Below, in pieces: positions 3,048 through 41,660 of a stretch of 64,000 nt of DNA (positions are counted from its first letter, which is position 1; each line of letters starts with the position of its first letter). Source of the DNA: a phage. A model generated the notes under the pieces. It had not been told where the DNA came from and did not search any database. It saw only the letters and a list, made by a program, of their open reading frames with translations. The translations under genes and the position numbers were made by a program. The DNA lies in sequence record PV730299.1, one strand, 5' to 3'.

Positions 3048-5330
3048 TTATACAACACAGCTATCGCACTGAGTTTCCTCGGCCTGCTTCAGCTCTTCGT
3101 CTTCCTTGGCGTCCTTGTTTGTGTTGTAATACAGAGTCTTGCCACCCCACATATAGAACGACAGGATATCCTGCATCATCTTGGCGCGAGGGATCTTGCT
3201 GTCAGGGTACTTCTCTGGGTCATACCACGTGTTGGTACTGATGGACTGGTCAACCCAGCGCTGGATGACAGCAGCGGTCTTCAGGTACTCAATACAGTCC
3301 AGATCCCACTTGAGGTCATACATCGGTCCAAGGGTCTCAACGTCCGGGACGACCTGCTTATAAGTGCCGTCCTTGCTACCCTTGATGCTCACCAAGCCCT
3401 TCGGTGGCTCAATGCCGTTCGTTGCGTTGAGGACCTGTGAGGAGCTTTCGGTAGGGGCTACTGCCAGCAGGGTGGCGTTGCGGATACCATAGGTCTTCAG
3501 ATTATCCTTCAACCCATCCCAATCCAGCCCGTATGCCATCCCTTCTGGCTTCTTGCCATTTGGTAGGATATCAAGTGGAAGCGGCTGAAGGTCGGCGGTG
3601 ACCTGCCCATTATTGTGGATGGTTCCGCGTTTACACGCCCCGAACTTCATAGCCAGACGGTTGGACGCCTTGACCAGATAGAAGTGCAGGTGTGCCATCC
3701 ACGCATCCAGCATTTCAAGACCAGCTGGTGAGCCATAGCCCGTGAAGTTCTTGGCCAGGAAGTGAGCCACGTTCACGATACCAACACCCAGAGGACGATA
3801 GTCTTCAACAGCCTTGCGAGCCTGAATCGCTGGATAGTCCTGATATTCCAACAGCATGTCCAGCGCAGACACCAACACGAACGCCACGTCTTCCATTTCG
3901 GTCGGGTCTTCGAATGCTGTCAGGTTGAAGGAAGCCAGGGTGCACAGAGCCACGCGCCCGTTTTCATCGTTGTACTGCTCAAACTCACGGGTCGGCAGGG
4001 CGATTTCTAAACAAAGATTTGAAGAATAAATCGTGTCTAGGTTGAATGGACTGTATTCATTCATGTGATCGACAAACGCGATGTAGATGCGGCCTGTGTC
4101 TGAACGCTGGTCTAACAGCATCTGGAACACCTCTTCTGCCTGCAACTTTTTAGCACGAACCAAACCAGCATCAGCGGCCTTGATCATGTTCTCATACAGA
4201 GTACGGAACTTGTCAACGTCAGCGAAGTATGCTTCATACATTTCGCGGTTGTCTTTCGGGTCGAACAGATACAGAGGCTGCTTGGCAACCAGGCGCTCAA
4301 ACATCACGCGGTTGATCTGAATGCCATAGTCGATACGGCGTTCGCGGTTTTCTTCAGTACCACGGTTGTTCTTCAGAACAACGACGTCATCGAACTGGTA
4401 ATGCCACAGAGGGATGTACGCTGTTGCTGCACCACCACGAATGCCGCCCTGAGAGCACGATTTGAGTGCCCCAGTGAGATACTTGATGAACGGGATCAGG
4501 CCTGTGTGAACCATCTCTCCGCCGCGAATAGGACTACCAATCCCACGGATTGCCCCGACGTCGAAGCCGATACCCGCACGTTTGGACACATAGTCAACGA
4601 TGGTCTTGGCTGTTGCGTTGATAGAGTTCAGGGTGTCATCAGTCTTGATTAACACGCAGGAACTAAACTGACGAGTAGGAGTACGAACACCTGCCATAAT
4701 CGGGGTGGGAAGACTGAACTTGCCTGTGCTGGCATATTCATAGAACTTTTTCACCATCTCCAGGCGGCTGTCTTTGTCCCAGTTAGAGAACAACGCCATG
4801 GCGATGCCCATGTACATGACCTGAGGGGTTTCGTAGAAGATCTTGCTGTCTTTCTTGGAACGGTCGCGCAACAGGTACTTCTCAGTCAGCTGACCCATGG
4901 CCGCCCACGTGAAGTTCTTATCGCGTTTGTGATTGATGACATCGTTCAGCTCGTTGAACTCTTCGGTCGTGTAGAGATCAAGGAACTCACGATCATACAC
5001 GCGCTGTTTGATGTTCTTGACGAAGATGTCCAGCAGGTGAGGCGGCTTGTACTGACCGTAGACAGCCTTGCGCAGATCATACGACTTCAGACGAGCAGCC
5101 ACATACTGGTAATTGGGTTTGTCTACAGAGATCAGTGAAGCCGCAGCCTGGATGAGGATATCCTGAATGCGATCTGTTCTCATGTTGTCGGTGAACTGAA
5201 TCTTCGATGCAGCGATCACCTCTGACATTGACACACCAGACAGGCCATCACAGGCGCGGTCTACGACTGCGTGTAGTTTCTCAATATCAAATGGGACAGA
5301 AGATCCGTCACGTTTTATAACGTTAATCAT
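3048..5330 (-). CDS. nrdA: ribonucleotide reductase class Ia alpha subunit
   Basis: 760 aa; N-terminal ATP-cone (MINVIKRDGSSVPFDIEKL), length matches NrdA (about 760 aa); SD GAGGAACACC-ATG; no intein. Confidence 0.95.
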   Translation of the reverse strand: MINVIKRDGSSVPFDIEKLHAVVDRACDGLSGVSMSEVIAASKIQFTDNMRTDRIQDILIQAAASLISVDKPNYQYVAARLKSYDLRKAVYGQYKPPHLLDIFVKNIKQRVYDREFLDLYTTEEFNELNDVINHKRDKNFTWAAMGQLTEKYLLRDRSKKDSKIFYETPQVMYMGIAMALFSNWDKDSRLEMVKKFYEYASTGKFSLPTPIMAGVRTPTRQFSSCVLIKTDDTLNSINATAKTIVDYVSKRAGIGFDVGAIRGIGSPIRGGEMVHTGLIPFIKYLTGALKSCSQGGIRGGAATAYIPLWHYQFDDVVVLKNNRGTEENRERRIDYGIQINRVMFERLVAKQPLYLFDPKDNREMYEAYFADVDKFRTLYENMIKAADAGLVRAKKLQAEEVFQMLLDQRSDTGRIYIAFVDHMNEYSPFNLDTIYSSNLCLEIALPTREFEQYNDENGRVALCTLASFNLTAFEDPTEMEDVAFVLVSALDMLLEYQDYPAIQARKAVEDYRPLGVGIVNVAHFLAKNFTGYGSPAGLEMLDAWMAHLHFYLVKASNRLAMKFGACKRGTIHNNGQVTADLQPLPLDILPNGKKPEGMAYGLDWDGLKDNLKTYGIRNATLLAVAPTESSSQVLNATNGIEPPKGLVSIKGSKDGTYKQVVPDVETLGPMYDLKWDLDCIEYLKTAAVIQRWVDQSISTNTWYDPEKYPDSKIPRAKMMQDILSFYMWGGKTLYYNTNKDAKEDEELKQAEETQCDSCVV

Positions 5331-5413
5331 GGTGTTCCTCGGGTTTGTTTACGCAGGTTTTATTATACGCCACCCTCGTAGATTGAAGGCGGCGGGGAGG
5401 GTTGGCGAGTTAC

Positions 5414-6256
5414 TTAAATGTCGTACAGATCGTTGACTTCCAGCATCAGGCGGGTGAAGTCGCCGCGCCCGTTGCGGTCAGACTTGTCGAACTCGATGAT
5501 ACTGAACGGCTGAACCCATTCAGGGTACTCATCACCGACGCCAACACCATCGATCTTCAGGGTTCCGGCCTCCAGCTTGGCGTTGAAGTCGCGGAAGGAA
5601 CTGACGTACTTTTCAAGGGCGCTGTCGCGCAGGCGCTTGTTGGACTGTTTGATGTCACCGTTGACAAAGATGTAAGTCGAGTCAGATGCGCGGGTCAGTA
5701 GGTTCTTCAGCTGCTCCATATCACATTCCTGCGCTTCTTCAATGATCAGGAAGGTGTCGTCAAAGGTCATCCCCTTGATGGTCTCCAGATCCTGGATCTC
5801 AATGATCCGCTTCTCCCACAGATAGTTGAAGAAACCGTCGCTACCTGTGTCAGTCTTCAGCACCTTCTTCAGCGTCTGAATCAGGGGCATCAGATATGGC
5901 ATCAGCTTTTCGTATGTGTCGCCAGGGCGGAAGCCTGCAGTCTGGCCTGTTGGCAGCGGAGAGCGCGTGATGACGATCTTACTGACCACTTTATCGATCA
6001 GGAGCTTGGCGGCGGCTGAGGCACCGCAGTACGATTTACCTGTACCGGCAGGACCGATTGCGATAGTGAGGTTTTCTTCAAGAGCAGATTGATATGCGAG
6101 GTTCTGATTCTCTGAGAGGCCATTGAACGGAGCGATTCTGAAGTCACCTTTAGAGAACTTCATCCAGTCATCTTCTTTCTGAATTGTCTCTTTCTTACGT
6201 GCTGACTTGGTCTTGCCCGCTGGCTTCTTACTTACAACTTTGGTGGCAGATTGCAT
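5414..6256 (-). CDS. phoH: PhoH-like ATPase
   Basis: 280 aa; Walker A GPAGTGKS and PhoH-family layout. Confidence 0.9.
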   Translation of the reverse strand: MQSATKVVSKKPAGKTKSARKKETIQKEDDWMKFSKGDFRIAPFNGLSENQNLAYQSALEENLTIAIGPAGTGKSYCGASAAAKLLIDKVVSKIVITRSPLPTGQTAGFRPGDTYEKLMPYLMPLIQTLKKVLKTDTGSDGFFNYLWEKRIIEIQDLETIKGMTFDDTFLIIEEAQECDMEQLKNLLTRASDSTYIFVNGDIKQSNKRLRDSALEKYVSSFRDFNAKLEAGTLKIDGVGVGDEYPEWVQPFSIIEFDKSDRNGRGDFTRLMLEVNDLYDI

Positions 6257-29634: not shown

Positions 29635-31878
29635 TTAGATTTTGATTTCTTTCTCTGTCAGTTCGGCAGTGACCTTGTACTTCACGCCATCCACTTCAAC
29701 TTCCATGGTGGACTCTTCCAAGTCGAGGTCGGTGAACCAGCCATGGCCAGCAACGATACCATAAACCACTTTAGACAGCGTCTTGTTCAGGGCACGGACT
29801 TCGGTGATGGCCGCCTTGGCAGCAGCGTCGATCCAGTTTTCGATCAGATGTTTCTGTAAGGCTTCAGGCACGGCAGTGATCATAGGAGACTTCACGAATG
29901 CTTCGTACTCCTTCAGCGCATTGGCGATGAACAAGTCACCAGCATTGAGTTTCTTGTTCTCGGCAATCTTCTTCTGTACCGCTGCGATAGACGGTAGAGA
30001 AGAAGCGCCAGCGATCTTCACGTTCAGCTCACGGCTCATGTAGAAGTCGGTAGACTCTTTGGTCTCAGTCTTCGGTGAGAATCCGTAATCGCGGATGCCG
30101 TAGGAGGACAGGAACTCGGCCGCCTCAGCGCCGTACTGTACTGCCAGGCCTTTGGCGTTACCCTTACCAACCAGGGCGTCTCGATAGAACTTCAGCACCT
30201 TCTGCTTGCCTTTCAGGGCTTCCAGACGGACATTATCCGCAAAGAACTGAGCAGCACTGATGTTCTTGACCATGGCGCGGTTGACCAGTGGTACACTTTC
30301 CAGGTTCAGGACAAACACTTCTGGACCACCAAACACGTGGACACCCATTTCGATCAGCTTATGCACGACTTCGATATCAGCCTTGAACGGCAGAGTCTTC
30401 ACGTTAATGATACCGTCTTTGACGATCGTGTAGTTGCGCCACTGGAAAGTATCCAGTTCTTCAGGCAGGCCGAACTTCTTCTGTGCGAATTCAGGCACAG
30501 CCACAGTACCGTGTTGAATTGTACGCACACTGATGTTCGGGCGCTCGGAGTTATAGACCAAATCGCTGATTGGCACAACACCCAGGTCGTTGGTAGGTTC
30601 GAACGTCGGGTTCCACTCTTCGTGCTCTGCCAGCTTGAGAGCCAGGGCTTTACGCTCTTCTTTGGACTGAGCATTCGCGATCTGTTCTGCCAGCTTGTCT
30701 TCGGTGTCGTCGGTTTTCTGCACAGTACCGCGCCCGATACTCTTATAGGAGAACATCGGATGCTTGGTAGCAACAGGCACACCAGCTTCAGCCAGGTACG
30801 TCAGCACATCAACAACGGTGGTCGCGTCTTCGGCCGGAACCAGGTCATAGTCAATACCGTCAACGCCGCGCAGCTGGTCGTCAACAATCGCCTGAACCAG
30901 ATCGTTCTTGATGTTGGAGTAGTCCTGCTTGGTGAAGCAGTTGCTGTACTGTTTGATGAAGCGAACGTCACCCGTTTTCTTCAGTGCAGCCCACACCAGG
31001 TCCGCGTCCATGATGTGTACGCCGTAGAACGCCAGCACGTATGCCGCCTGGATATCCGTCAGACTATCCATCTGGTCGATCATGTTAGGGTTTACAACCC
31101 ACAGCTTGGTGACGCTCTCAGGGATGCTCACATAGCCGACCGGGTGAGAGTCATCGTCCTGCACCGCCAGTACTGTTGCCACACCGTTTTCGACGTAGAT
31201 GGCATGGGTGTAGATGACTGGGACATCAACTTTCACCTTCGGCACTGATGACTTCAGCACGTTTTCCAGTTCGGTCTGGTATTCGGTCTGACCTTCGGCA
31301 AACACATGAGTCGCGCCAGAGCGCTCGGACATCAGAGCCAGCAGTTCGCGGTTACAGTGCCAGCCGTATTCGATGAAAGTAATGTTATCGAACACAGAAG
31401 GCAAGGTTTCGGCGACGGCCAGGATTTCGTTTGAGCGCCAGCAGTTGTCATAACCATCGGTCATGAATGCCAGGTTGTTGACGTAACCAGGTTTCTTCAG
31501 GTCACGCGCAGTATCCATCGCCAGTTTCAACGGCTCAACGAAGCCAGTACATCCGGACGGTTGCAGGAAGCGATCGATCAGTTTGTTCAGCTCGCTCAGG
31601 TCAGACGCAGCACTAACCTGGCGGCCAGCGAACACAGTACCAAAGTCGCCTTTGGAGGAGAAATACAGAACGCTCACAGTGTCTTCCGGTTTCACCAGGG
31701 AAGGCAGGTTCTCCTTCAGATGCTTACGGACTTCAGGGAGCGCACGGTACATAGAGCCGGAAATGTCTACAACGATTACATGGTTGGACGGGGCAGCAGT
31801 CGCAACCGCATTCTTAAATTCTAATGATTCAATCATTGTTCTCTTCGCCTTGTGCGTAAGGGTTAAGTTCAGACTCAT
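29635..31878 (-). CDS. von Willebrand factor A (VWA) domain protein, function unknown
   Basis: 747 aa; N-terminal VWA with MIDAS motif VIVVDISGSM and downstream T/D residues; long C-terminal region without a recognised family; start could alternatively be the ATG 14 codons in (MIESLEF). Confidence 0.7.
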   Translation of the reverse strand: MSLNLTLTHKAKRTMIESLEFKNAVATAAPSNHVIVVDISGSMYRALPEVRKHLKENLPSLVKPEDTVSVLYFSSKGDFGTVFAGRQVSAASDLSELNKLIDRFLQPSGCTGFVEPLKLAMDTARDLKKPGYVNNLAFMTDGYDNCWRSNEILAVAETLPSVFDNITFIEYGWHCNRELLALMSERSGATHVFAEGQTEYQTELENVLKSSVPKVKVDVPVIYTHAIYVENGVATVLAVQDDDSHPVGYVSIPESVTKLWVVNPNMIDQMDSLTDIQAAYVLAFYGVHIMDADLVWAALKKTGDVRFIKQYSNCFTKQDYSNIKNDLVQAIVDDQLRGVDGIDYDLVPAEDATTVVDVLTYLAEAGVPVATKHPMFSYKSIGRGTVQKTDDTEDKLAEQIANAQSKEERKALALKLAEHEEWNPTFEPTNDLGVVPISDLVYNSERPNISVRTIQHGTVAVPEFAQKKFGLPEELDTFQWRNYTIVKDGIINVKTLPFKADIEVVHKLIEMGVHVFGGPEVFVLNLESVPLVNRAMVKNISAAQFFADNVRLEALKGKQKVLKFYRDALVGKGNAKGLAVQYGAEAAEFLSSYGIRDYGFSPKTETKESTDFYMSRELNVKIAGASSLPSIAAVQKKIAENKKLNAGDLFIANALKEYEAFVKSPMITAVPEALQKHLIENWIDAAAKAAITEVRALNKTLSKVVYGIVAGHGWFTDLDLEESTMEVEVDGVKYKVTAELTEKEIKI

Positions 31879-32146: not shown

Positions 32147-33811
32147 TCAGATTTGTGAGGCCAGTTCTGTCACCAGAGGAGCGGCACGAACACGCGCATC
32201 TTCCAGTGTTTGAGTATTGAAGAACTCGCCATCACGATACACCAGCTGGTGCTGGTTGTCGGCGTCTTGCACCTGATCAAAGGTGATACCGTCAACCAAC
32301 ACTAGTTTACCCTGAGAGTCTTTAATGACTTTAAGGAAACCACGCGCAGACTTTTTAGTCCCGCCTTTATCGGTCTTCGGCTCTTTGAAGATCTCACGGA
32401 ATTCGCCGTTCACTTTACCAGCCGTGGCTTTCACCGCCGTGCCAGTACTGTCACGGGTGTTCATCTGGTAGGTGTAGGAACCGATACCGAACACCACGTT
32501 GATGGAAGCGAAGTTCCGGTCAGCCAGACGGCTAAAGATCTGGTCTTCACGCGACAGGGTGATAGAATCACCGTAGATCAGGCCGATGTGCTCATCCAAC
32601 AGGAAGTGCCCAGTTTCAGTCTGGGTGCCACCAAAGATCTCCCACAGGCGCTGGATAGAGCCGACCGCTTCTGAACGGCTGATGATATTACGGTCATCTG
32701 CCATCAGAGAGTTGATCGTGCCTTCGCCTGTAATCAGGTGGTAGGTGTTCGTCTCTTCGATGTGAATAACTTCTGTGTCGCTAGACACACCGCTAATGTT
32801 CAGCGTGGCACGGTCTTTGAACCCCTCGATGCGGTAGCCGCCAACAATGTGTACAGGGTCGCCCGAGTCGGGGCGGATCACGACTTTACCATTGCGCGCC
32901 ATGATAATGTCTTTCAGGCGAGGGAGATAGTCGTCGATGACCTGCCAGTAATCCCATGCATCAGACACGATGCTGACGGTGCCATCAGGATACACGTCCT
33001 GCACCAGGCGGCGGAAGGTTTCGAATTCGCCATCCTTCGTGCCCATACACATCACGGCGTGTTCGGTAGCCGCAACAGAACCAGCAACGACATAATCTTC
33101 GTCGATGTCTGCGCCATAATACTCTTCTACGAAGTCTAGGGCAGGGTTGGTATCGGTGCCTTTGAAGAACACCAGATGACCGGAACCGGAAGACGCCGCG
33201 TCATGCCACCCGCTCATACCACGGAAGGAGAAGTCGTGGCCTTGGTAGTCGATGAACCAATGGTCCGGCGACACGCCTGTAGCGAGGGCAGCTTTCACCA
33301 TCAGTGCCTTGTAATGCAGAGCTATGGTGGCGTTCGTCATCGGCTTCCATATCTCAGAGCTGAACACGGTCTCCAGATAGTTGGTCAGCCAGTAGAACTC
33401 CGGCAGGGTATTGAACATCACATACACCGGAACGCCATACGGGCACATGGTGCCTTCAGGCAGCGCACGGACTTCGATAGGAAGGTAGCCGAGGTCATGC
33501 AGGGCTTCAATATGCTCTGTGCCGACGCGGCCTGGACCCAGGACTTTGTTCATGCGACGGGCATACTTCTTCAGCACCTTGGCCTTCGGGCACTGGAAGA
33601 ATGCTTCGTCAAACAGTTCGTGGAACCAGGTCATGAAGCCCTGGATGCCCCAGACCACCACTCCGTTCTTCGGCAGGTGAGAGTTGAACAGTTTGTTAGA
33701 GCGCGGAGTTCCGTTGGAGAACACCAGCTCACTGCCTTCAGGGAACTGATAGATGTGCCCCGATTTGTAGAAGTCGATTGCATGGATTGGGTCTAAGTGG
33801 CGCATGCTCAT
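32147..33811 (-). CDS. nadV: nicotinamide phosphoribosyltransferase family protein (NadV/Nampt-like; candidate Namat of a NARP1 module)
   Basis: 554 aa with overall Nampt/NadV-like character; start overlaps the stop of the Prs-like gene (ATGA). Confidence 0.85.
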   Translation of the reverse strand: MSMRHLDPIHAIDFYKSGHIYQFPEGSELVFSNGTPRSNKLFNSHLPKNGVVVWGIQGFMTWFHELFDEAFFQCPKAKVLKKYARRMNKVLGPGRVGTEHIEALHDLGYLPIEVRALPEGTMCPYGVPVYVMFNTLPEFYWLTNYLETVFSSEIWKPMTNATIALHYKALMVKAALATGVSPDHWFIDYQGHDFSFRGMSGWHDAASSGSGHLVFFKGTDTNPALDFVEEYYGADIDEDYVVAGSVAATEHAVMCMGTKDGEFETFRRLVQDVYPDGTVSIVSDAWDYWQVIDDYLPRLKDIIMARNGKVVIRPDSGDPVHIVGGYRIEGFKDRATLNISGVSSDTEVIHIEETNTYHLITGEGTINSLMADDRNIISRSEAVGSIQRLWEIFGGTQTETGHFLLDEHIGLIYGDSITLSREDQIFSRLADRNFASINVVFGIGSYTYQMNTRDSTGTAVKATAGKVNGEFREIFKEPKTDKGGTKKSARGFLKVIKDSQGKLVLVDGITFDQVQDADNQHQLVYRDGEFFNTQTLEDARVRAAPLVTELASQI

Positions 33812-34662
33812 TTTACACGTCCTGTATTTTCAGTTTTGAAAGGAAGCCCGTCGGCGGTGATGTTCTCCCACCAGACAGTGTCGGCATACACAGCATCATA
33901 GATCCCGTCGAAAACAGAGAGACCTTTGCTGAAGATGCCATGGGTAACGAAGAGTGTCATGTGCTTAGGCTTGTGCTTCTGAAGCTCTTTGCCTAACTCA
34001 ACGAAAGTGCGCCCGCCGTCGCAGATATCATCAACCACAACCAGATAGCGGTCTTTGATCAGTTCAGGGTTCGTAATACTCACCCCAATGATCTCACCAG
34101 TCTTGGTGTCACGGTTCTTGTGACCGTAGACAATAGGAACACCGTCCAACGACAGGCTGAGGGCTTCGGTCTTCTTAGCCGCGCCGCCGTCAGGGGCCAC
34201 CAACACAGCGTTGTTCCCACGGATGAACCAACCCAGATACTGACGCACGATGTAATCTTGCGGGACAACATGGACGTTGTTGATCAGAGAAGACACAACA
34301 TGGCTGTGAGGATCTTTGATCGCCACGCGGTCAAAGTTCATGCTATTGATGAACTCAGCCGCCCACTTCACAGACAGAGGCTCACCGAAGTCACAATGGC
34401 GGTCCTGGCGAGCATACGGGAAATAAGGGATATACGCATGGAATGTCGTCAGACGGTCCACGTTACCCAGACCACGAACGGCGTTTACCAGAAGCGCCAG
34501 CTCAATGAAGTCAGCCGATGATTTGATGTGAGCATCAATCACCACGTTCTGAACGTGGCCGATAGGGATACCAGACTTTTGAATCTTGATATGTTCCTCA
34601 CCACCTGGGAAGGTGAAGTGTTTGTAGAACACATCTTGGTCGTTCAATTTCAAACGAAACAT
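33808..34662 (-). CDS. prs: ribose-phosphate pyrophosphokinase family protein (Prs-like; candidate Adps of a NARP1 module)
   Basis: 284 aa; IPYFPYARQDR and VVDDICDGGRT match the Prs motifs IPYFGYARQDR and LVDDMIDTGGT, but the protein is shorter and more divergent than housekeeping Prs. Confidence 0.85.
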   Translation of the reverse strand: MFRLKLNDQDVFYKHFTFPGGEEHIKIQKSGIPIGHVQNVVIDAHIKSSADFIELALLVNAVRGLGNVDRLTTFHAYIPYFPYARQDRHCDFGEPLSVKWAAEFINSMNFDRVAIKDPHSHVVSSLINNVHVVPQDYIVRQYLGWFIRGNNAVLVAPDGGAAKKTEALSLSLDGVPIVYGHKNRDTKTGEIIGVSITNPELIKDRYLVVVDDICDGGRTFVELGKELQKHKPKHMTLFVTHGIFSKGLSVFDGIYDAVYADTVWWENITADGLPFKTENTGRVK

Positions 34663-34770
34663 AATGCAGCCTCATGGTGTATTGTACAGCCGTATTATAC
34701 TGTGATGCACAAATTGAAACGTCCAGCATTTACGCTGGACGTTATTGATATTGAAAAGGTTTTGACAAAC

Positions 34771-35004
34771 TCAGGATTTGGAGGAAGCGCCCTTCCATGT
34801 CTGACGTTTGTAGTGGGAAGCCATGGCCATCGACCCGGCGTATTGTGTTTCACCCCTGACTACCACAGCCACAACCAGCTTATGTCGCAACAGGAAGTCC
34901 AGACCTGACTTAGACGGGATATCGCCAATGCTCAGTGGACCACGATTGTACAGGGCATACATGGTGTCAAGCGCCGCCCCGGTAAAGATAATCTCTTTAG
35001 ACAT
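34771..35004 (-). CDS. hypothetical protein
   Basis: 78 aa from MSKEIIF; the track ORF starts further upstream and overlaps the preceding gene. Confidence 0.4.
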   Translation of the reverse strand: MSKEIIFTGAALDTMYALYNRGPLSIGDIPSKSGLDFLLRHKLVVAVVVRGETQYAGSMAMASHYKRQTWKGASSKS

Positions 35005-35011
35005 GGCGGTC

Positions 35012-35317
35012 TCACTTAAACGAGTCAACGATGGATGTAAGAATTTCGGGGGTGGGTTTGGCGTCTTGTGGTTCACGGAAACCCACCTTTGCGATGCGAC
35101 CCAAGACATTGTACACTTCGCGCGGAAGGGTGTCTACGACCGTGTCCGACATGAACGCCACGTCTTCTTGGATGGCGTTGTATTCGGCCAGTTTAGCCAG
35201 TTCTGATTCTACCAGGGACTTCAGCTTTTGCAATGGGTCGTTGCAATAGTTGAGACGGTTGCAGTTGGTGAGCGCCTGGGTTAGATTCTCAAACGCTTCT
35301 TGTATTTCCTTTGACAT
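35012..35317 (-). CDS. hypothetical protein
   Basis: 102 aa from MSKEIQEAF with GAGG about 10 nt upstream. Confidence 0.45.
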   Translation of the reverse strand: MSKEIQEAFENLTQALTNCNRLNYCNDPLQKLKSLVESELAKLAEYNAIQEDVAFMSDTVVDTLPREVYNVLGRIAKVGFREPQDAKPTPEILTSIVDSFK

Positions 35318-35404
35318 TGATATGTGCCTCGTATTGTTGACAGACAACAACTACTTTACGGCACATGTCGATATCGAACAAGCCAATATGACACTCACGC
35401 TTCT

Positions 35405-35698
35405 TTATCCCCAGCTTATGCGCCAGCCAACTGTAAGCGTCGCTCCTGCTCCTCTCTCCGTTTTCCATAATGGGTCAAACGATCTATGGGCTTTTTGCTT
35501 CTCGGCACGGAGAGCGGCATTCGCCATCCTTCCCAGAGGCTGTCTGCCGTCGCCATGGGCATGGCAACCGACACGGGCATCACACGGGGTGCATATCCAG
35601 AACTTCAGATTGCGGAGGTCAGGGCGATGAGGGTAGAGAACATCACCACCGACGAATTCGGCTGGGAGGCCACAGTAATCACATATAACATGTTTCAT
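35405..35698 (-). CDS. putative zinc-ribbon protein
   Basis: 98 aa from MKHVICDYCG; cysteine pairs CDYCG and CTPCDARVGCH; the track start at 35725 lies inside the upstream terminator hairpin. Confidence 0.5.
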   Translation of the reverse strand: MKHVICDYCGLPAEFVGGDVLYPHRPDLRNLKFWICTPCDARVGCHAHGDGRQPLGRMANAALRAEKQKAHRSFDPLWKTERGAGATLTVGWRISWG

Positions 35699-35705
35699 AT
35701 TCTTT

Positions 35706-35736
35706 GTCCAAAAGAAACCCCGCACATGGCGGGGTT
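35706..35736 (-). terminator. rho-independent terminator
   Basis: Hairpin AACCCCGC-N5-GCGGGGTT followed by TCTTTTGG on the minus-strand transcript. Confidence 0.6.
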
Positions 35737-35758
35737 GCTCAGGCTGAGGTCAGACAGA

Positions 35759-36130
35759 TTATTTCAGGAGTGCTTCCAGTTCTTCAACAGATTTGCTTTC
35801 CAGCTCTTGCTGTTTCTTACGCTGGATCAGCTCCAGGATAATCTGGTTGTTCGCCTTACGCTCTGCCGCTTCTCTGCTGTCGTCACGTTCTTTCAGCTTA
35901 ACGCCGATGATGTGCTTGACAACGTCGAAGCGCAGCTGCAGTTCGGAGTCAACGTTGCTTTTGGTGCCAATGAAATCTTCTTCATCGGTTTCTGCTGCTT
36001 TCACCTGACGGCTCAGACCTTTCGCCATTTCGTTCAGGGCAGTCAGGCTCAGGTCCCAGACCTGCTCAACAGACAGCAGACCTTTGTTAGACTCGAAGCG
36101 CAGTTTCATACGGGTTGCTTTATCAAACAT
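35759..36130 (-). CDS. hypothetical protein (predicted coiled-coil)
   Basis: 123 aa; SD GAGGATAGTAAA-ATG. Confidence 0.55.
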   Translation of the reverse strand: MFDKATRMKLRFESNKGLLSVEQVWDLSLTALNEMAKGLSRQVKAAETDEEDFIGTKSNVDSELQLRFDVVKHIIGVKLKERDDSREAAERKANNQIILELIQRKKQQELESKSVEELEALLK

Positions 36131-36174
36131 TTTACTATCCTCAATGATGAATGGGTTACAATTTCAAATCAGGT

Positions 36175-38193
36175 TTAGAACACAACTTTCACAGTGCGGT
36201 TGAACGAACCGCTCACCTTCACGAACACGTGGTTACGTTGGGTGGTAGAGAAGCCCAGACCGGACAGCTGCTCAGTGCTTGGCTGTACTTTAATCTTACC
36301 ACCTAACATTTCAAAAACCTTGCGGTGTTTATCAAGTTCCGGCTTCAGATATTCGTTATAGAAACCACGGGTGCCGACAGGGTTAGCACAACCTTCCAGG
36401 ATGAAGAACACGTGCTTGTTGCCCGTCTGCTCGCCGTCCCAATGGTTTGGTGAGTTCAGAACCAGCTGTACCTTCTGGAAGACGGAGGTCTTGATGCCCC
36501 AGATTTCCTGAGAGCGAGCGTCGTCTTTCAGGGTAGAACTGATGTCAACCACCTGACCAGCGCGAACCTGAACCACAACAGCCAACGTGCGATCTTTGTT
36601 ACCCAAGCCAGGGTGTGAGAAGCGCTTAGTCTGACCTTTGTATTCAACTTCGATTTCGAAACCAACGTCACAGGTTTCACGCTTGTTGAAGTTGGTGACA
36701 TAGAACTCATAATTCCCGTCGCGCAGCTTGCTTTCATCGCTAAAGAAGATGTTCTCCACCGGACGGCGGTTTGGATCAATGCCGTCCATACCGTTCATGT
36801 CGATGTCCAGAGTTGCGCCAGTTGACGAACGACGGTTGCGAAAATATACGTGGTTGTGAAGAGGATCGTTCATGCTCAGATCCAGGTCGTCGTTGTTATG
36901 CCAAGCCAGTGACACACGGAGGAAACTGTCGACATTACCACCTGCGGTCTTCACGCGCTCTTTGATGGAGTCGGCCACTTCGCCATTGTACGACCAGCTG
37001 AAGCCGTTGTTCCACTTGAACAGGTTAGGAGCGCCTGCGGTGGCCGGAGCGATCAGGGACATCAGGTTGCCAATGTGAGAGTTTTCGACCAGCACTTCCA
37101 GGGAATGCGCCTTTGGCAACACGTTTGTCAGGAAGTCGTCGATCGTGATCTCTTCAACCTTGTCCAGGGACTTGGTCGGAGTCTTCACTTCAGACGCCAG
37201 CTGAGCAAACGGGTCCATCTTCTTCTGAGCTGCCAGATCGGCGAACAGAACGTTGTTGATGGTCAGATCGTCATACACGGCATAACGGCGACCCAGTGAA
37301 TCAGTCAGACCCAGCGCTTCGACTTCTTTCTGCGCGTTTTCAATCATCGACTTCGTGACCAGCGCGGTTGGGCGCTTGTAGTTCGTCGGAGCGACTTTGG
37401 CTTCAAAGGACTTCACGGCGGTTTCCAGATCCCGGCCTTCATTGAGGTCTACCAGCAGAGAGCCAATCACGGTATTACGAATGCCGTGAGGGGTATGACC
37501 GTTTGCACGGTAGCCAGTGCGCCAAGCCCACAGAGCGCGTTTCTCTTCTGCAGTTTGTTCGTACATGGTCTTGTTCACCACGAACGCCTGCACTGCCGCT
37601 TTGTGCTCTTCACCGCGATACAGAGAATTCTGGTCAATCAATTCCAGAACGATTTCAGCCGATTCCAGAGACAGTTCACGCAGGCCGCGCTCAAACACTT
37701 CAATCGCCTGGCGGATTTCACCCTTCTTAGAAGCGATGGTATCTGCCCGCAGAACATAGCTGCCCAGCAGGTCGGTGTGGAAGTGGTTGTAGGTGCGGAC
37801 AATACCATCTTTCATTTCGTGATTCGACTCAACACCAACTTTCTTGGTGTCGTTGAAGTACACGTCGACGATTGCGTGCTGCTTAACATACGCTGACAGC
37901 GCCGCAGCGACAACGTCGTATTCGTTACCCAGCTGAATGTTATCCCAGATAGAGATCACGTTCAGGTCGGCGTCGATGGTGACCACACCGCCGATGTTAC
38001 GGATGAATTGTTTACAGCAGGTGCAGTCGTGCTCGGTACGCTCACGGTAGAGCGGGTTGGTACCAGCAGGAAAAGAAGACAGATACAGATCCCACAGAGC
38101 ATCTTTATCGATGTTGGTCATGAACAGACCAGTTGCTGACATGGCTAGCACGTTGTTGTTAACAGCTACTGCGAAGGGCTTAAATTCTGACAT
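36175..38193 (-). CDS. large hypothetical protein (672 aa)
   Basis: Uninterrupted ORF with SD AGGAAGACTACACC-ATG; no polymerase, ligase or helicase motifs found by eye. Confidence 0.7.
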   Translation of the reverse strand: MSEFKPFAVAVNNNVLAMSATGLFMTNIDKDALWDLYLSSFPAGTNPLYRERTEHDCTCCKQFIRNIGGVVTIDADLNVISIWDNIQLGNEYDVVAAALSAYVKQHAIVDVYFNDTKKVGVESNHEMKDGIVRTYNHFHTDLLGSYVLRADTIASKKGEIRQAIEVFERGLRELSLESAEIVLELIDQNSLYRGEEHKAAVQAFVVNKTMYEQTAEEKRALWAWRTGYRANGHTPHGIRNTVIGSLLVDLNEGRDLETAVKSFEAKVAPTNYKRPTALVTKSMIENAQKEVEALGLTDSLGRRYAVYDDLTINNVLFADLAAQKKMDPFAQLASEVKTPTKSLDKVEEITIDDFLTNVLPKAHSLEVLVENSHIGNLMSLIAPATAGAPNLFKWNNGFSWSYNGEVADSIKERVKTAGGNVDSFLRVSLAWHNNDDLDLSMNDPLHNHVYFRNRRSSTGATLDIDMNGMDGIDPNRRPVENIFFSDESKLRDGNYEFYVTNFNKRETCDVGFEIEVEYKGQTKRFSHPGLGNKDRTLAVVVQVRAGQVVDISSTLKDDARSQEIWGIKTSVFQKVQLVLNSPNHWDGEQTGNKHVFFILEGCANPVGTRGFYNEYLKPELDKHRKVFEMLGGKIKVQPSTEQLSGLGFSTTQRNHVFVKVSGSFNRTVKVVF

Positions 38194-38533
38194 GGTGTAG
38201 TCTTCCTGTTTCAGTTCAAATGTGCGCCCCGTTTGCCAGGGCGCTTCGTTTAAGTGAGGTCAATAATACGTTGAAAAGAGTTATTGAAGAACGAAGTAAA
38301 GGGAATCTTTATTCAGACGATCTTACCGCCGTCACAAGGCCGAGTATCACCGGAGTTGTATGCCAACATCCCCTGCATCAACAAACGTCTTGGCCCAGAA
38401 ACTGATTTCTGTTTCCTCAACGTACTACAAAACCGAGTAGTGCCTGGGTAAGGAGTGTACACGAGACGTCCTTCCATACGGGCTTTCAGAAGAAACTCAT
38501 CAGTCGCTTTACGCAGTTTGAACAATTTCCAGC

Positions 38534-39463
38534 TCATTTCTCACCCTTGTATCTTTTTAACCATTTGACGCATTTTAATGGTTCCCACCCTTTATTGAAA
38601 CGTTCGATTATCCCACTGGTGGCATTAAACGCCTTCAGATCTTTTGTTCCGTACACATGCATGAGGGCTTCTGAACGTTTCATCGTTTTCAGGGCTTCAA
38701 GGAATTGATCAGCTTTCTCCCAATATACGTCATTGTCGGGGTTCCATTTACCCTTCTCCCAAGGCATCTTAGCCAACATGCCTTTCTGAGCGTTTTCTTT
38801 CTGTTTGGCGCGTTGCTCTGGTGTGAATGAGTTGGTTAAGTCCTTCCCATAATTGGGATTGAGTTCCCCCAGTTTAGCTTTCCTGGCACATTCAGAAAAT
38901 TGTTCTAAATCCATGTTGGCGCGGCGTTTCTCTAAAACCCGCCTTTTATATTCAGGATCAGAAGCCATCCTTTCATGGATTTTCATCAATCCTTTGGTAA
39001 TTTTCTTGACTTGCTCTGGGGTTCTCTTATACCCATATTGGGGATTATTCTTTCCTCTTCTCCCATACATTGGGTTGTCTTTACCCACAAACCGAGAAAC
39101 CCCTTTCCATTGTAAAGACAGTTGTTCGCTGAATTTAATTCTGAAACGTTCATACAAATGAGAATTAAACCGAATACCTGATTTATTTCTTCTTCCTCCC
39201 TTTCTCATAGCTACCACAGCATACACCATTCTCGTGTTTGGGAAAGCCAAGGCCAAGCATACATGGACAAGATAATGTTGTCTGCCTGTTAATCGAACCA
39301 AATTTATCTTATCTTTAGAATATTCAGGGAACATGCTCTTGGGAAGGATGTGGTGCAATTCAGTGTAGTCACCATCAGAATATTTGAAAGATTGAATCAT
39401 CCTCAAATACTTCTTGATAAAATGCGGTTTACCGCCTTTAGAAATCAATAATTCGTAAAACAT
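38534..39463 (-). CDS. HNH homing endonuclease with NUMOD3-like repeats (free-standing mobile gene)
   Basis: 309 aa; HNH core TELHHILPKS; repeated NPMYGRRGKNNPQYGYKRTPE / LNPNYGKDLT modules; gene and flanks are markedly AT-richer than neighbours. Confidence 0.8.
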   Translation of the reverse strand: MFYELLISKGGKPHFIKKYLRMIQSFKYSDGDYTELHHILPKSMFPEYSKDKINLVRLTGRQHYLVHVCLALAFPNTRMVYAVVAMRKGGRRNKSGIRFNSHLYERFRIKFSEQLSLQWKGVSRFVGKDNPMYGRRGKNNPQYGYKRTPEQVKKITKGLMKIHERMASDPEYKRRVLEKRRANMDLEQFSECARKAKLGELNPNYGKDLTNSFTPEQRAKQKENAQKGMLAKMPWEKGKWNPDNDVYWEKADQFLEALKTMKRSEALMHVYGTKDLKAFNATSGIIERFNKGWEPLKCVKWLKRYKGEK

Positions 39464-39522: not shown

Positions 39523-40719
39523 TTACTTTTTAAATAAATTTAGTAGGTTTTTAGAACCAGATGTCGCCGCTTTGGGTTGTCCTTCCCCATTGTATCCAAC
39601 CTTCCCGCGCGGTTTTTTACCTTGCTGTATGGCCTCTACACAACGGGTATATTTCGACAATTCACAAAAGTGGTTTTCTAACTGTTGAACATTCATACAC
39701 TGATCCCAAGGCTCTTCCGCAGACCAGAATTGCTCACGAACATACCCATATTGGGAATACACCGCGTCCTGATTGTCCCGCAACCAGAAGATGCATTCTT
39801 CATGCGTCATGCCATCTTTGTCCTGGAACATCAGATCAATCCCTGCGCGACAGCCTGGTCCAGCAACCGTGAAGTGGTTCTCACTGAAAGGATATCCAGG
39901 AATGTAAGTGAAGTCTACCCAGATCTGATAGGCCAGGAATGGACCAAGCCCTTCGATGTCGTCATACATGCGCTGGTATACTTCCAAAGGAGTACCAAGG
40001 CGCAGCAGGTCATGGAAATAATTTGGATACTTGTTGACGAATGCCTTCAGGGAGCGGATGACACGCATTGGCATGTACGGTTCCCAACCTTCGATGGTGT
40101 AGAAGTCCGGCTCTGCTTCGGCTATCGCCTTGGCTTCTTTATAATCCATGTTCTGGGTTGAACCGTCTTTACAGATCAGATTCACCATCATCCCACCGAA
40201 GCACTGCTCCTTGTGGTTGACAACCATCTCAGGGAAAGCCAGGCATTGCTTCAGGCCGCCCGTGTTGAAGGCATTGGTGAATACCTTACCACCGTCGGCC
40301 TCGAACTTCTGAAGTCGTTCGCGGGTTGCATCGAGGTTGATCTCGGCGAATTCTTTGATCGTCATCGCGCCGCCGATAGCCTGGATTGGATCCCAGAGGT
40401 TGAACATGCGGAACAACACGCAGTTGAACATCTTGTCGGCCATACTCAGAGCATCGTTGTTGACGATGTTGTTGATCAGGTTGAGAGATTGCCTGTCGTG
40501 CTCTCTCCGGACATTACAGAACTTGACCTGCCGTAGTATGGGATTATCAGTCCAAGGAGCAGGAAGGCGCTGGACGTCCTTCTTGACGTGGATCTGATAA
40601 CGATCGCGCATCCATTCGTAAGACAGGCGGGTATGGGTCGGACTGAGAACCGGTTTGGCCGACTTTATCTTTTCTTCACGGACACCGCAGTACGGGACGT
40701 CCAGGGCTTTATCTTTCAT
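39523..40719 (-). CDS. hypothetical protein (398 aa)
   Basis: Uninterrupted ORF; SD AAGAGGATACC-ATG; no family recognised. Confidence 0.65.
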   Translation of the reverse strand: MKDKALDVPYCGVREEKIKSAKPVLSPTHTRLSYEWMRDRYQIHVKKDVQRLPAPWTDNPILRQVKFCNVRREHDRQSLNLINNIVNNDALSMADKMFNCVLFRMFNLWDPIQAIGGAMTIKEFAEINLDATRERLQKFEADGGKVFTNAFNTGGLKQCLAFPEMVVNHKEQCFGGMMVNLICKDGSTQNMDYKEAKAIAEAEPDFYTIEGWEPYMPMRVIRSLKAFVNKYPNYFHDLLRLGTPLEVYQRMYDDIEGLGPFLAYQIWVDFTYIPGYPFSENHFTVAGPGCRAGIDLMFQDKDGMTHEECIFWLRDNQDAVYSQYGYVREQFWSAEEPWDQCMNVQQLENHFCELSKYTRCVEAIQQGKKPRGKVGYNGEGQPKAATSGSKNLLNLFKK

Positions 40720-40787: not shown

Positions 40788-41660
40788 TTAATCGATACGT
40801 GTCAGTTGGGTGATAGATGATTGCACTGGGCTGGCCACATAGATACGGACGTTGGCTTTCCATTCACCCCAGATCAACGGTAGAGTTGGGAAGTTGTCTT
40901 CATTGAAAACAAACACGGGAATGTAGCTCTCGACTGTTTCGCCAGAGAACGCCTGGAAGCCCATCTTGGTGTATCCCATGATCTCGTCAATAAAATCGAA
41001 CGGAGCGAAGGCAACACCAGCGTGTTCGTTAGAACCGAGCTGGCCTGGAATGGCCGTGCCCGTCAGAATGATTTCGGTGATCTGGCGCTTAGGCTCGGTG
41101 GTCAACATATCAGAGAAGTCAGGCTCTTTGAAGGTTGCCATGTTCTTCAGGAACTTGCCAGCCGGGTACTCTTTGCCGTCGACGGTGATGGTGTCTACCA
41201 CTTTGATGCACGCCTGAGGGAATTCCCCTTCGATGCGTAGACTTTCGCGTGGGAAGCCTTTGTTGTAGTAGTAATCCAGTGCAGGCACAACTTCACCTTC
41301 ATTACGGATGAACTTGCTCATGTTAGAGGCATACACGCGCTGTAGGCATTCGTCACCGTCGAAACCAGCAATATGAGCCACGCCGTCGTTGACTGTTGTG
41401 ATGTCACCCTGGGCATCCATGATCTGGCGCATAATGTCTTTGATGTCGACAACAACGGGTTCTTTCAGGACTCGAGGAGATGCGGCGAACTCAATTTTCA
41501 CCTCGTGGTCGAAATACGCCGCTTCTAGCAGTTCACGAGTTTCTTCCAGCACCAGTTTCGCCTGATTGCGGATCTTACCAAAGTCGGGCGATGTGACGTC
41601 GCCCTTTGCATTACCGAAAGCCAGATTCAGATTCACGTTCTTAGAAAATGTAGTTGTCAT
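40788..41660 (-). CDS. hypothetical protein (290 aa)
   Basis: Uninterrupted ORF between regA and the 398-aa gene; no family recognised. Confidence 0.65.
   Translation of the reverse strand: MTTTFSKNVNLNLAFGNAKGDVTSPDFGKIRNQAKLVLEETRELLEAAYFDHEVKIEFAASPRVLKEPVVVDIKDIMRQIMDAQGDITTVNDGVAHIAGFDGDECLQRVYASNMSKFIRNEGEVVPALDYYYNKGFPRESLRIEGEFPQACIKVVDTITVDGKEYPAGKFLKNMATFKEPDFSDMLTTEPKRQITEIILTGTAIPGQLGSNEHAGVAFAPFDFIDEIMGYTKMGFQAFSGETVESYIPVFVFNEDNFPTLPLIWGEWKANVRIYVASPVQSSITQLTRID

Follow-up and report, generated by a model that had tools for sequence, protein, structure and literature searches.

A DUF8224 protein of an Agtrevirus-like phage with a TerD-like insert and an obligate small partner gene

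INTRODUCTION

The catalogued proteins closest to the gene studied here are those of the Pfam family DUF8224 (PF26675) and of PHROG 1735, neither of which has an assigned function, and, by structure and for one segment only, the TerD group of beta-sandwich proteins. DUF8224 is among the larger and better-conserved uncharacterised families of tailed phages, and literature searches on DUF8224, PF26675 and TerD in Ackermannviridae returned nothing relevant. The present analysis concerns a DUF8224 gene in a 64,000-nucleotide (nt) stretch of phage DNA (sequence record PV730299.1; hereafter the window, meaning this whole stretch), which was placed by megablast with the Agtrevirus-like phages of the family Ackermannviridae. 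The initial annotation of the locus had described a large open reading frame (ORF) of unknown function under an early-type promoter, and had judged an accessory role plausible from its neighbours. Here, we describe the gene, a small gene that accompanies it, and the function that the two might have.

RESULTS

The 672-aa gene and its family

Two genes on the minus strand are the main subject of this study:

36175..38193, minus strand: DUF8224-family gene, 672 amino acids (aa), recognised by its ORF, PHROG 1735, PF26675 on 99%-identical proteins, and the ratio of nonsynonymous to synonymous substitution rates (dN/dS)
35759..36130, minus strand: partner gene, 123 aa, recognised by a partner hidden Markov model (HMM), PHROG 2018, and dN/dS

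The ORF listing gave the larger gene as an uninterrupted frame with an ATG start, in agreement with the initial annotation in position, strand and length. It is a real and intact gene, because it matches its counterpart in Escherichia phage LHE287 with 98.5% nucleotide identity, has full-length homologues in at least 60 Ackermannviridae records and more than 5,300 homologues in a large protein search, and gave dN/dS values of 0.06–0.26 against five relatives of rising distance (Nei–Gojobori method). The gene is thus under purifying selection. In Agtrevirus, Salmonella phages Marshall and Maynard and Shigella phage ChubbyThor carry copies that are 95–96% identical. The product, of 75 kDa, has an isoelectric point (pI) of 5.9 and a maximum 19-residue hydropathy of 1.28, with no transmembrane or hydrophobic segment by hydropathy, and is a soluble, acidic protein.

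Over its entire length (residues 1–672 on profile positions 1–673), the protein matched PHROG 1735 (E = 0, 1020 bits). Its assignment to DUF8224 is unambiguous by sequence, and it is indirect, via close relatives: PF26675 is precomputed, at full length, on proteins 82–99% identical to it. The Pfam library used for the direct scan had no PF26675 model, and with that library (E ≤ 1), as with NCBIfam, no match was obtained.

An exhaustive HMM search, spanning 1.84 billion cluster representatives (clusters at 50% identity), retrieved 9,119 DUF8224 clusters at E ≤ 1e-3, of which 5,363 remained with a cut-off of E ≤ 1e-10 and 2,316 with one of E ≤ 1e-30; the best 150 of the 9,119 are all collinear, of ~660–690 aa, with a constant architecture. 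By tblastn, the gene was found in 556 deposited phage records. The carriers span at least 10 unrelated groups and include Ackermannviridae, KpS8/CR8/Hena1 myoviruses, phiCbK-like Caulobacter phages, Pseudomonas phage pf16, Alteromonas phage AD45-P1, Bastille-like Bacillus phages, N4-like Schitoviridae, a Microcystis phage and Cellulophaga phage phi4:1. A scan of one genome per species found a further 160 prokaryotic loci, many of them chromosomal in Micromonosporaceae (Actinoplanes, Micromonospora, Salinispora and Dactylosporangium) and others in Myxococcota, Sericytochromatia and Clostridia, including one on a Clostridioides difficile plasmid. The homologues in these groups are 39–50% identical to the window protein, and an identity of 40–50% is kept from enterobacterial phages to actinobacterial chromosomes.

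An obligate partner gene

Directly downstream of the 672-aa gene lies a 123-aa gene that matches the partner HMM and is 34–45% identical to the gene following DUF8224 in unrelated loci, namely a Bradyrhizobium contig, a 210-kb contig and the N4-like phage Paxi. We define the long-form two-gene module by a partner gene of ~125–135 aa, adjacent and on the same strand. By HMM, the partner adjoins DUF8224, in the same orientation, in 80 of 80 viral loci coding for the long form of the protein (the form found in the window) and in 79 of 80 bacterial ones, the single exception being a contig that ends 48 nt past the gene. It was found in none of the 86 loci of the short form, in which a central segment is missing (see below). 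The 123-aa gene is therefore an obligate partner of long-form DUF8224. Clustering of the neighbours at ~250 loci returned the partner as the only strictly conserved one, with no other even across 38 Micromonosporaceae chromosomes. This is the genuinely conserved link of the family, and the initial annotation mentioned neither it nor the TerD-like insert and the wide distribution.

The partner gene is itself constrained, with a dN/dS of 0.11–0.41. In an AlphaFold2 model with a predicted local distance difference test score of 86, its product has a short N-terminal beta-hairpin motif (F-x2-A-x-R-x-K-x-R-F ... E-D-L-W-D-L), a long helical hairpin and a short C-terminal helix. Because a terminator-like hairpin with a T-run follows it, the two genes look like a bicistronic unit:

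35716..35736, minus strand: intrinsic-terminator-like hairpin, AACCCCGC-CATGT-GCGGGGTT followed by TCTTTT, closing the two-gene unit

The sequence of this hairpin is kept in ChubbyThor and Marshall. On the opposite strand, a 230-aa ORF (35486..36178, plus strand) runs antisense to the partner gene and to the DUF3268 gene that follows it. We consider it an artefact of the ORF list, because the minus-strand genes opposite to it have homologues and show purifying selection; the equivalent antisense ORF also misled greedy ORF picking at related loci.

A self-standing core interrupted by a TerD-like insert

The 672-aa protein can be divided into three segments:

36922..38193, minus strand: N-terminal core, aa 1–424, with no match to a known fold
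36475..36921, minus strand: TerD-like beta-sandwich insert, aa ~425–573, recognised by structural resemblance
36178..36474, minus strand: C-terminal core, aa 574–672, the most conserved part, basic (pI 9.6)

The N-terminal core is composed of an alpha/beta domain, which carries an E-H-D-C-x-C-C motif (aa 51–60) and H137, followed by a helical domain (aa ~150–300) and a second alpha/beta region. In the C-terminal core, the motifs SPNHWDG, GNKH-FF-LEGC, RGFYNE-L and HRKVFE are found, and this segment aligns with the C-terminus of the short forms. The latter, of 530–560 aa, also belong to PF26675 and occur in Xp12 and its relatives, PaBG, several jumbo phages and Burkholderia and Ralstonia prophages. 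They align to residues ~24–420 and ~574–672 of the window protein. Because they are gapped over residues 427–573, the sandwich is an insertion into a core that can stand by itself. Five core residues (H137, R274, R302, E614 and E628) are invariant, short forms included, while the E-H-D-C-x-C-C motif is nearly invariant among long forms and its outer two cysteines are invariant in short forms too.

The insert has the TerD beta-sandwich fold, a resemblance that is structural only. When the insert or family profile was compared with TerD by sequence, hhalign gave a probability of 0.3 to the structure 2kxt and BLASTP an E value of 8.7. Conserved residues of the insert are W431, D436, D438, D463, D465, E480 and N481, the last six being nearly invariant among family members. 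The absence of the insert from the short forms coincides with the absence of the partner. No other functional clue is as strong as this correlation, from which binding of the partner to the TerD-like insert is predicted.

For the core (aa 1–424 and 574–672), no solved fold was matched, so that for ~520 of the 672 residues no relative with a known structure or function is recognisable. The PDB, searched by sequence and by profile with three alignments, gave chance-level matches only, and Foldseek against predicted viral structures (BFVD) returned uncharacterised family members only. A match of the C-x-C-C residues to a RING finger in the PDB searches (E 0.05–0.25) was at chance level and was dropped. 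Among 63 diverse members scanned at E ≤ 1, the only recurrent weak Pfam signal was DUF2135, in three of the 63 (best E 0.085).

Natural deletion in the Limestoneviruses

The Limestoneviruses carry a natural deletion of the pair. In Dickeya phage LIMEstone1, codons ~1–267 of the DUF8224 gene remain, as three small ORFs, while the last 60% of the gene was lost together with the partner, DUF3268, small ORFs, the Prs-like gene and most of NadV. These losses correspond to two deletions (LIMEstone1 4501..5569 against window 32463..37393), which left annotated gene fragments behind. The pair is thus dispensable for a viable Ackermannviridae phage of the genus Limestonevirus, and the accessory role proposed in the initial annotation gains support from this natural knockout.

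A conserved leader with a promoter-like block

Upstream of the start codon, three elements were located:

38263..38288, minus strand: promoter-like block TTCAATAACTCTTTTCAACGTATTAT, conserved across genera, with a likely -10 element TATTAT at 38263..38268
38224..38244, minus strand: leader hairpin GCGCCCUG-GCAAA-CGGGGCGC (fold of the leader z = -3.2)
38202..38207, minus strand: ribosome-binding site AGGAAG, downstream of the leader hairpin

ChubbyThor shares 95% identity over the ~115 nt that precede the start codon, a region that is conserved in blocks in Agtrevirus, Kuttervirus, Taipeivirus-like phages and phiMAM1. The order of the blocks is TTCAATAA; (T)ATATTGACCTCAC, which contains TATTAT; the hairpin; TTTGAACTGAAACAGGAAG; 7–8 nt; and ATG. 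The hairpin reported by the initial annotation is found here, as a G+C-rich stem of 8 bp between the promoter-like element and AGGAAG. In phiMAM1, the stem has a compensatory G-C to A-T change, and the loops are variable. An Rfam search of the leader gave no family.

The sequence TTCAAT-N14-TATTAT is present and conserved, with a spacer of 13 nt in LIMEstone1. Its reading as an early-type promoter is not established: a spacer of 14 nt is off the sigma-70 geometry (16–18 nt between hexamers), and a scan with the sigma-70 consensus reported no site at 38263..38288. A weak -35 promoter in the register TCTTCA-16-TATTAT (TTTTCA-16-TATATT in Kuttervirus) appears more plausible, scoring three of six and five of six consensus positions here and four of six and five of six in Kuttervirus. 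The depositors of LIMEstone1 marked the same TATTAT as the -10 of a "putative promoter", and used "putative early promoter" for other sites. No transcription start or timing data were found for this phage group, the Kuttervirus transcriptomics literature included. We also considered TTCAATAA...TAT and TATTGACCTCAC as recurring phage promoter motifs and rejected them, because neither recurs elsewhere in the window. Use of the promoter would place the hairpin within the 5' leader, ~11 nt from the predicted start, where it may stabilise the mRNA or act as a weak terminator of the upstream gene.

Genomic neighbourhood

In the window, the 672-aa gene is downstream of genes for the sliding clamp, the clamp loader, RegA, a MazG-like protein and a protein with the 5-hydroxymethyldeoxyuridine (5-hmdU) DNA kinase helical domain. 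Similar surroundings were observed elsewhere: the gene has dCTP deaminase and ThyX close by in the N4-like phage Paxi, and it lies between ribonucleotide reductase (RNR) and polynucleotide kinase (PNK)/ligase in Xp12 and beside SSB, helicase, RecT, exonucleases and methylases in prophages, while RNR, ThyA, ligases, methylases, ERF and RdgC are found near it at 20 short-form loci. Phage copies are always within a replication, recombination or nucleotide-metabolism region. End-healing and end-sealing enzymes (PNK, ligases, RtcB) recur near DUF8224, at the level expected for such modules.

A zinc-finger gene of the DUF3268 family comes next after the pair at 15 of 18 loci of Ackermannviridae; among 142 other viral loci it was adjacent or close by in 12, and among 80 bacterial loci in none. 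In the window, this gene (35289..35725, minus strand) has a 1-nt deletion between 35461 and 35460 (AAAA-CGG against AAAAGCGG in ChubbyThor and Marshall). This breaks the gene into two ORFs (106 aa and 59 aa) and reflects either decay into a pseudogene or an error of sequencing.

Around the bacterial copies examined, there were no phage hallmark genes and no defence-island or prophage signature, and 121 neighbours of 24 bacterial loci gave only scattered single matches to defence models. No ter operon genes (TerB, TerC, TerZ/A/E, TelA) were seen, either in the conserved clusters of neighbours or in the leading Pfam families around the pair. The flanks of the Micromonosporaceae pair differ between species, for example between Dactylosporangium, Salinispora and Micromonospora chromosomes.

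The HNH and NadV/Prs genes noted in the initial annotation are indeed neighbours of the pair; the association with NadV/Prs is synteny seen in Ackermannviridae loci only. The Prs-like gene (33808..34662, minus strand) and the NadV/Nampt-like gene (32147..33811, minus strand) overlap by 4 nt, the Prs-like gene being first. This is the order of the phage NAD+ reconstitution pathway NARP1 (Adps and Namat), which counters NAD+-depleting defence (bioRxiv 10.1101/2024.02.11.579819), and because of this arrangement the "NadV/Prs module" is probably a counter-defence operon rather than a plain NAD salvage pathway.

Adjoining the leader of the 672-aa gene on its other side is a mobile element:

38534..39463, minus strand: HNH/NUMOD3 endonuclease, 309 aa

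The whole cassette (38313..39463, minus strand), made of the endonuclease and a 74-aa ORF, has been inserted precisely after the stop of the 5-hmdU-kinase-like gene and before the DUF8224 leader, and ChubbyThor is without it. In LIMEstone1, this site is occupied by a homologous endonuclease, F-LimVI, which is 82% identical at the nucleotide level over 339 nt, and the insertion point looks like a shared homing site. The 5-hmdU-kinase-like gene (39523..40719, minus strand) encodes a 398-aa protein with the domain PF18723 (E 2e-81), and a MazG-like pyrophosphatase (PHROG 2144) is encoded at 40788..41660, minus strand. Such genes are typical of the thymidine-hypermodification machinery reported for ViI-like phages. 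Farther away, at 29635..31878 on the minus strand, is a gene for a 747-aa vWA-domain protein (PHROG 2426), followed by an acyl-carrier-protein-like gene; ORF108, the homologue of the vWA protein in LIMEstone1, carries an annotation as a confirmed structural protein.

DISCUSSION

Proposed function of the pair

We tentatively favour, with well under even confidence, a reading in which the two proteins make up a soluble factor of two subunits that serves phage DNA or nucleotide metabolism, the partner being docked on a metal-binding TerD-like insert. Its parts are given here in order of decreasing confidence. Most probably among them, the 672-aa and 123-aa products would form a complex, with the partner docking on the insert. 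The insert would keep a site for a divalent cation of the Ca2+ type, a prediction made because its nearly invariant acidic residues and N481 resemble the acidic loops of TerD, and would serve as a regulatory, adaptor or localising module and not as the catalytic part. The core may be an enzyme or a ligand-binding machine whose substrate is a universal nucleic acid or nucleotide; it would act in the pre-late phase of infection, helping DNA replication, repair or nucleotide-pool metabolism. The constant placement of phage copies in replication, recombination or nucleotide modules speaks for such a role. A chemical or binding step in the core is suggested because its His, Arg and Glu residues are invariant even in short forms and because the E-H-D-C-x-C-C motif is nearly invariant in long ones; the identity kept across groups, the invariant residues, the dN/dS of about 0.1 and the constant architecture make up an enzyme-like pattern of conservation. 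Finally, the pair would be accessory rather than essential.

Several points weigh against this proposal. We infer the complex from co-occurrence, and the binding of metal is a prediction that leans on a structural likeness to TerD; the TerD profile PF02342 gave no match in the Pfam scan at E ≤ 1. No homology or fold match identified a catalytic domain, so that the word enzyme reflects only the pattern of conservation. Bulk binding of nucleic acids is not suggested by a protein that is acidic overall and basic in its last 100 aa only. Early and middle phage regions hold many unrelated functions, and guilt by association is weak there. In bacteria, the surroundings are everyday genes of metabolism, transport and regulation, and the partner is the only conserved neighbour, so that a role in DNA metabolism gains no support from them.

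A broader reading, which we regard as possible and rather doubtful, is that the DUF8224 core represents a new fold with a new activity on a universal substrate of the nucleic-acid or nucleotide type, gated in the long form by the metal-binding insert and the obligate coiled-coil partner, and that the whole is an autonomous module shared by lytic phages of many families and by actinobacterial, myxobacterial and clostridial chromosomes. More speculatively still, the insert might let phages engage or mimic the Ter-type stress or phage-inhibition systems of the host.

Alternative explanations

In a different explanation, which we judge unlikely and yet worth weighing, the pair could be a conflict module (for counter-defence, superinfection exclusion, or as a defence or stress cassette) portable between bacteria and lytic phages, and in one version of it the TerD-like insert would mimic or engage the Ter-type machinery of the host. 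A self-contained cassette of two genes, whose flanks are unrelated in nearly all lineages and even among the 38 Micromonosporaceae chromosomes, would fit such a role, as would its dispensability in Limestoneviruses, the mobile homing endonuclease adjoining it and the probable NARP1 counter-defence operon nearby. TerD-family domains are also reportedly found in systems linked to phage inhibition, an observation credited to Anantharaman, Iyer and Aravind in 2012. However, neither protein matched any PADLOC 2.0 defence model (E ≤ 0.1), the bacterial neighbours are mostly housekeeping genes (oxidoreductases, transporters) with no phage hallmark genes among them, and TerB, TerC and TelA were not seen nearby. 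The very high conservation and fixed architecture would also be unusual in proteins engaged in an arms race.

It is less probable that the pair is a non-enzymatic, metal-responsive complex acting as a scaffold, a chaperone or a sequestering agent, for example a Ca2+-sensing stress protein that binds a protein or a small molecule without chemistry. The TerD-like sandwich is the only recognisable module of the protein, the long helical hairpin modelled for the partner is of a kind typical of adaptor or coiled-coil proteins, and lineages that sporulate or undergo development (Micromonosporaceae, Myxococcota, Clostridia and Bacillales) are over-represented among the chromosomal copies. Against this, the core is itself widespread without insert and partner, so the TerD-like part cannot be the main function, and the invariant His, Arg and Glu of the core look catalytic or ligand-binding.

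A role in the virion or its morphogenesis is essentially excluded. The nearby vWA protein, structural in LIMEstone1, and one Bacillus phage record that names the homologue a "putative membrane protein" would point that way, but the gene is always in replication or nucleotide modules and never in structural ones, its chromosomal copies are away from prophage genes, the protein has no transmembrane segment, and it was lost in Limestoneviruses.

A DNA-directed RNA polymerase or other core replication enzyme is effectively refuted: the polymerase name, given to ChubbyThor gp166 (OL615013.1) and in Salmonella phage Se-B (NC_049495.1), has no support in these two GenBank records, since searches of Pfam, NCBIfam and the PDB, the latter by sequence and by profile, matched no polymerase, more than 500 other records, and so nearly all, say "hypothetical protein", and the gene is deleted in viable Limestoneviruses. 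Our analysis corrects that label, and the lack of polymerase, ligase, helicase and nuclease motifs reported by the initial annotation agrees with profile and structure searches, which gave no homology to a core replication enzyme.

The two-subunit factor of DNA or nucleotide metabolism stays our working proposal, and the analysis makes the family experimentally tractable: it defines a two-gene functional unit, separates the core from the insert, and supplies an insert–partner correlation that predicts a physical interface, a natural knockout lineage and candidate catalytic residues. In the literature searched, the obligate partner, the dissection into core and insert, the TerD-like fold of the insert, the distribution in bacterial chromosomes and the natural knockout of Limestonevirus are not described. 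DUF8224, whose gene pair is found on its own in bacterial chromosomes too, is a good family in which to look for new functions.

Comparison with known systems

Compared with the TerD, TerE and TerZ proteins (PDB 2kxt, 3ibz and 2qz7), which are free proteins of ~190 aa, the sandwich described here is inserted in a larger protein. The beta-sandwich of DUF2135 (YfaP-type) gave weak matches to the insert region, far under the curated threshold, which hint at a shared class of sandwich only. The short forms of DUF8224 (Xp12 QNN97164, PaBG_00013 and the Burkholderia and Ralstonia prophage proteins) share the N-terminal ~400 and C-terminal ~100 aa with 23–28% identity and likewise sit in replication or nucleotide modules; they differ in having neither the TerD-like insert (aa ~427–573) nor the partner gene. 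With the long forms of DUF8224 and PHROG 1735, the window protein is collinear over its full length. It therefore adds a typical member to a family that is already catalogued and still blank as to function.

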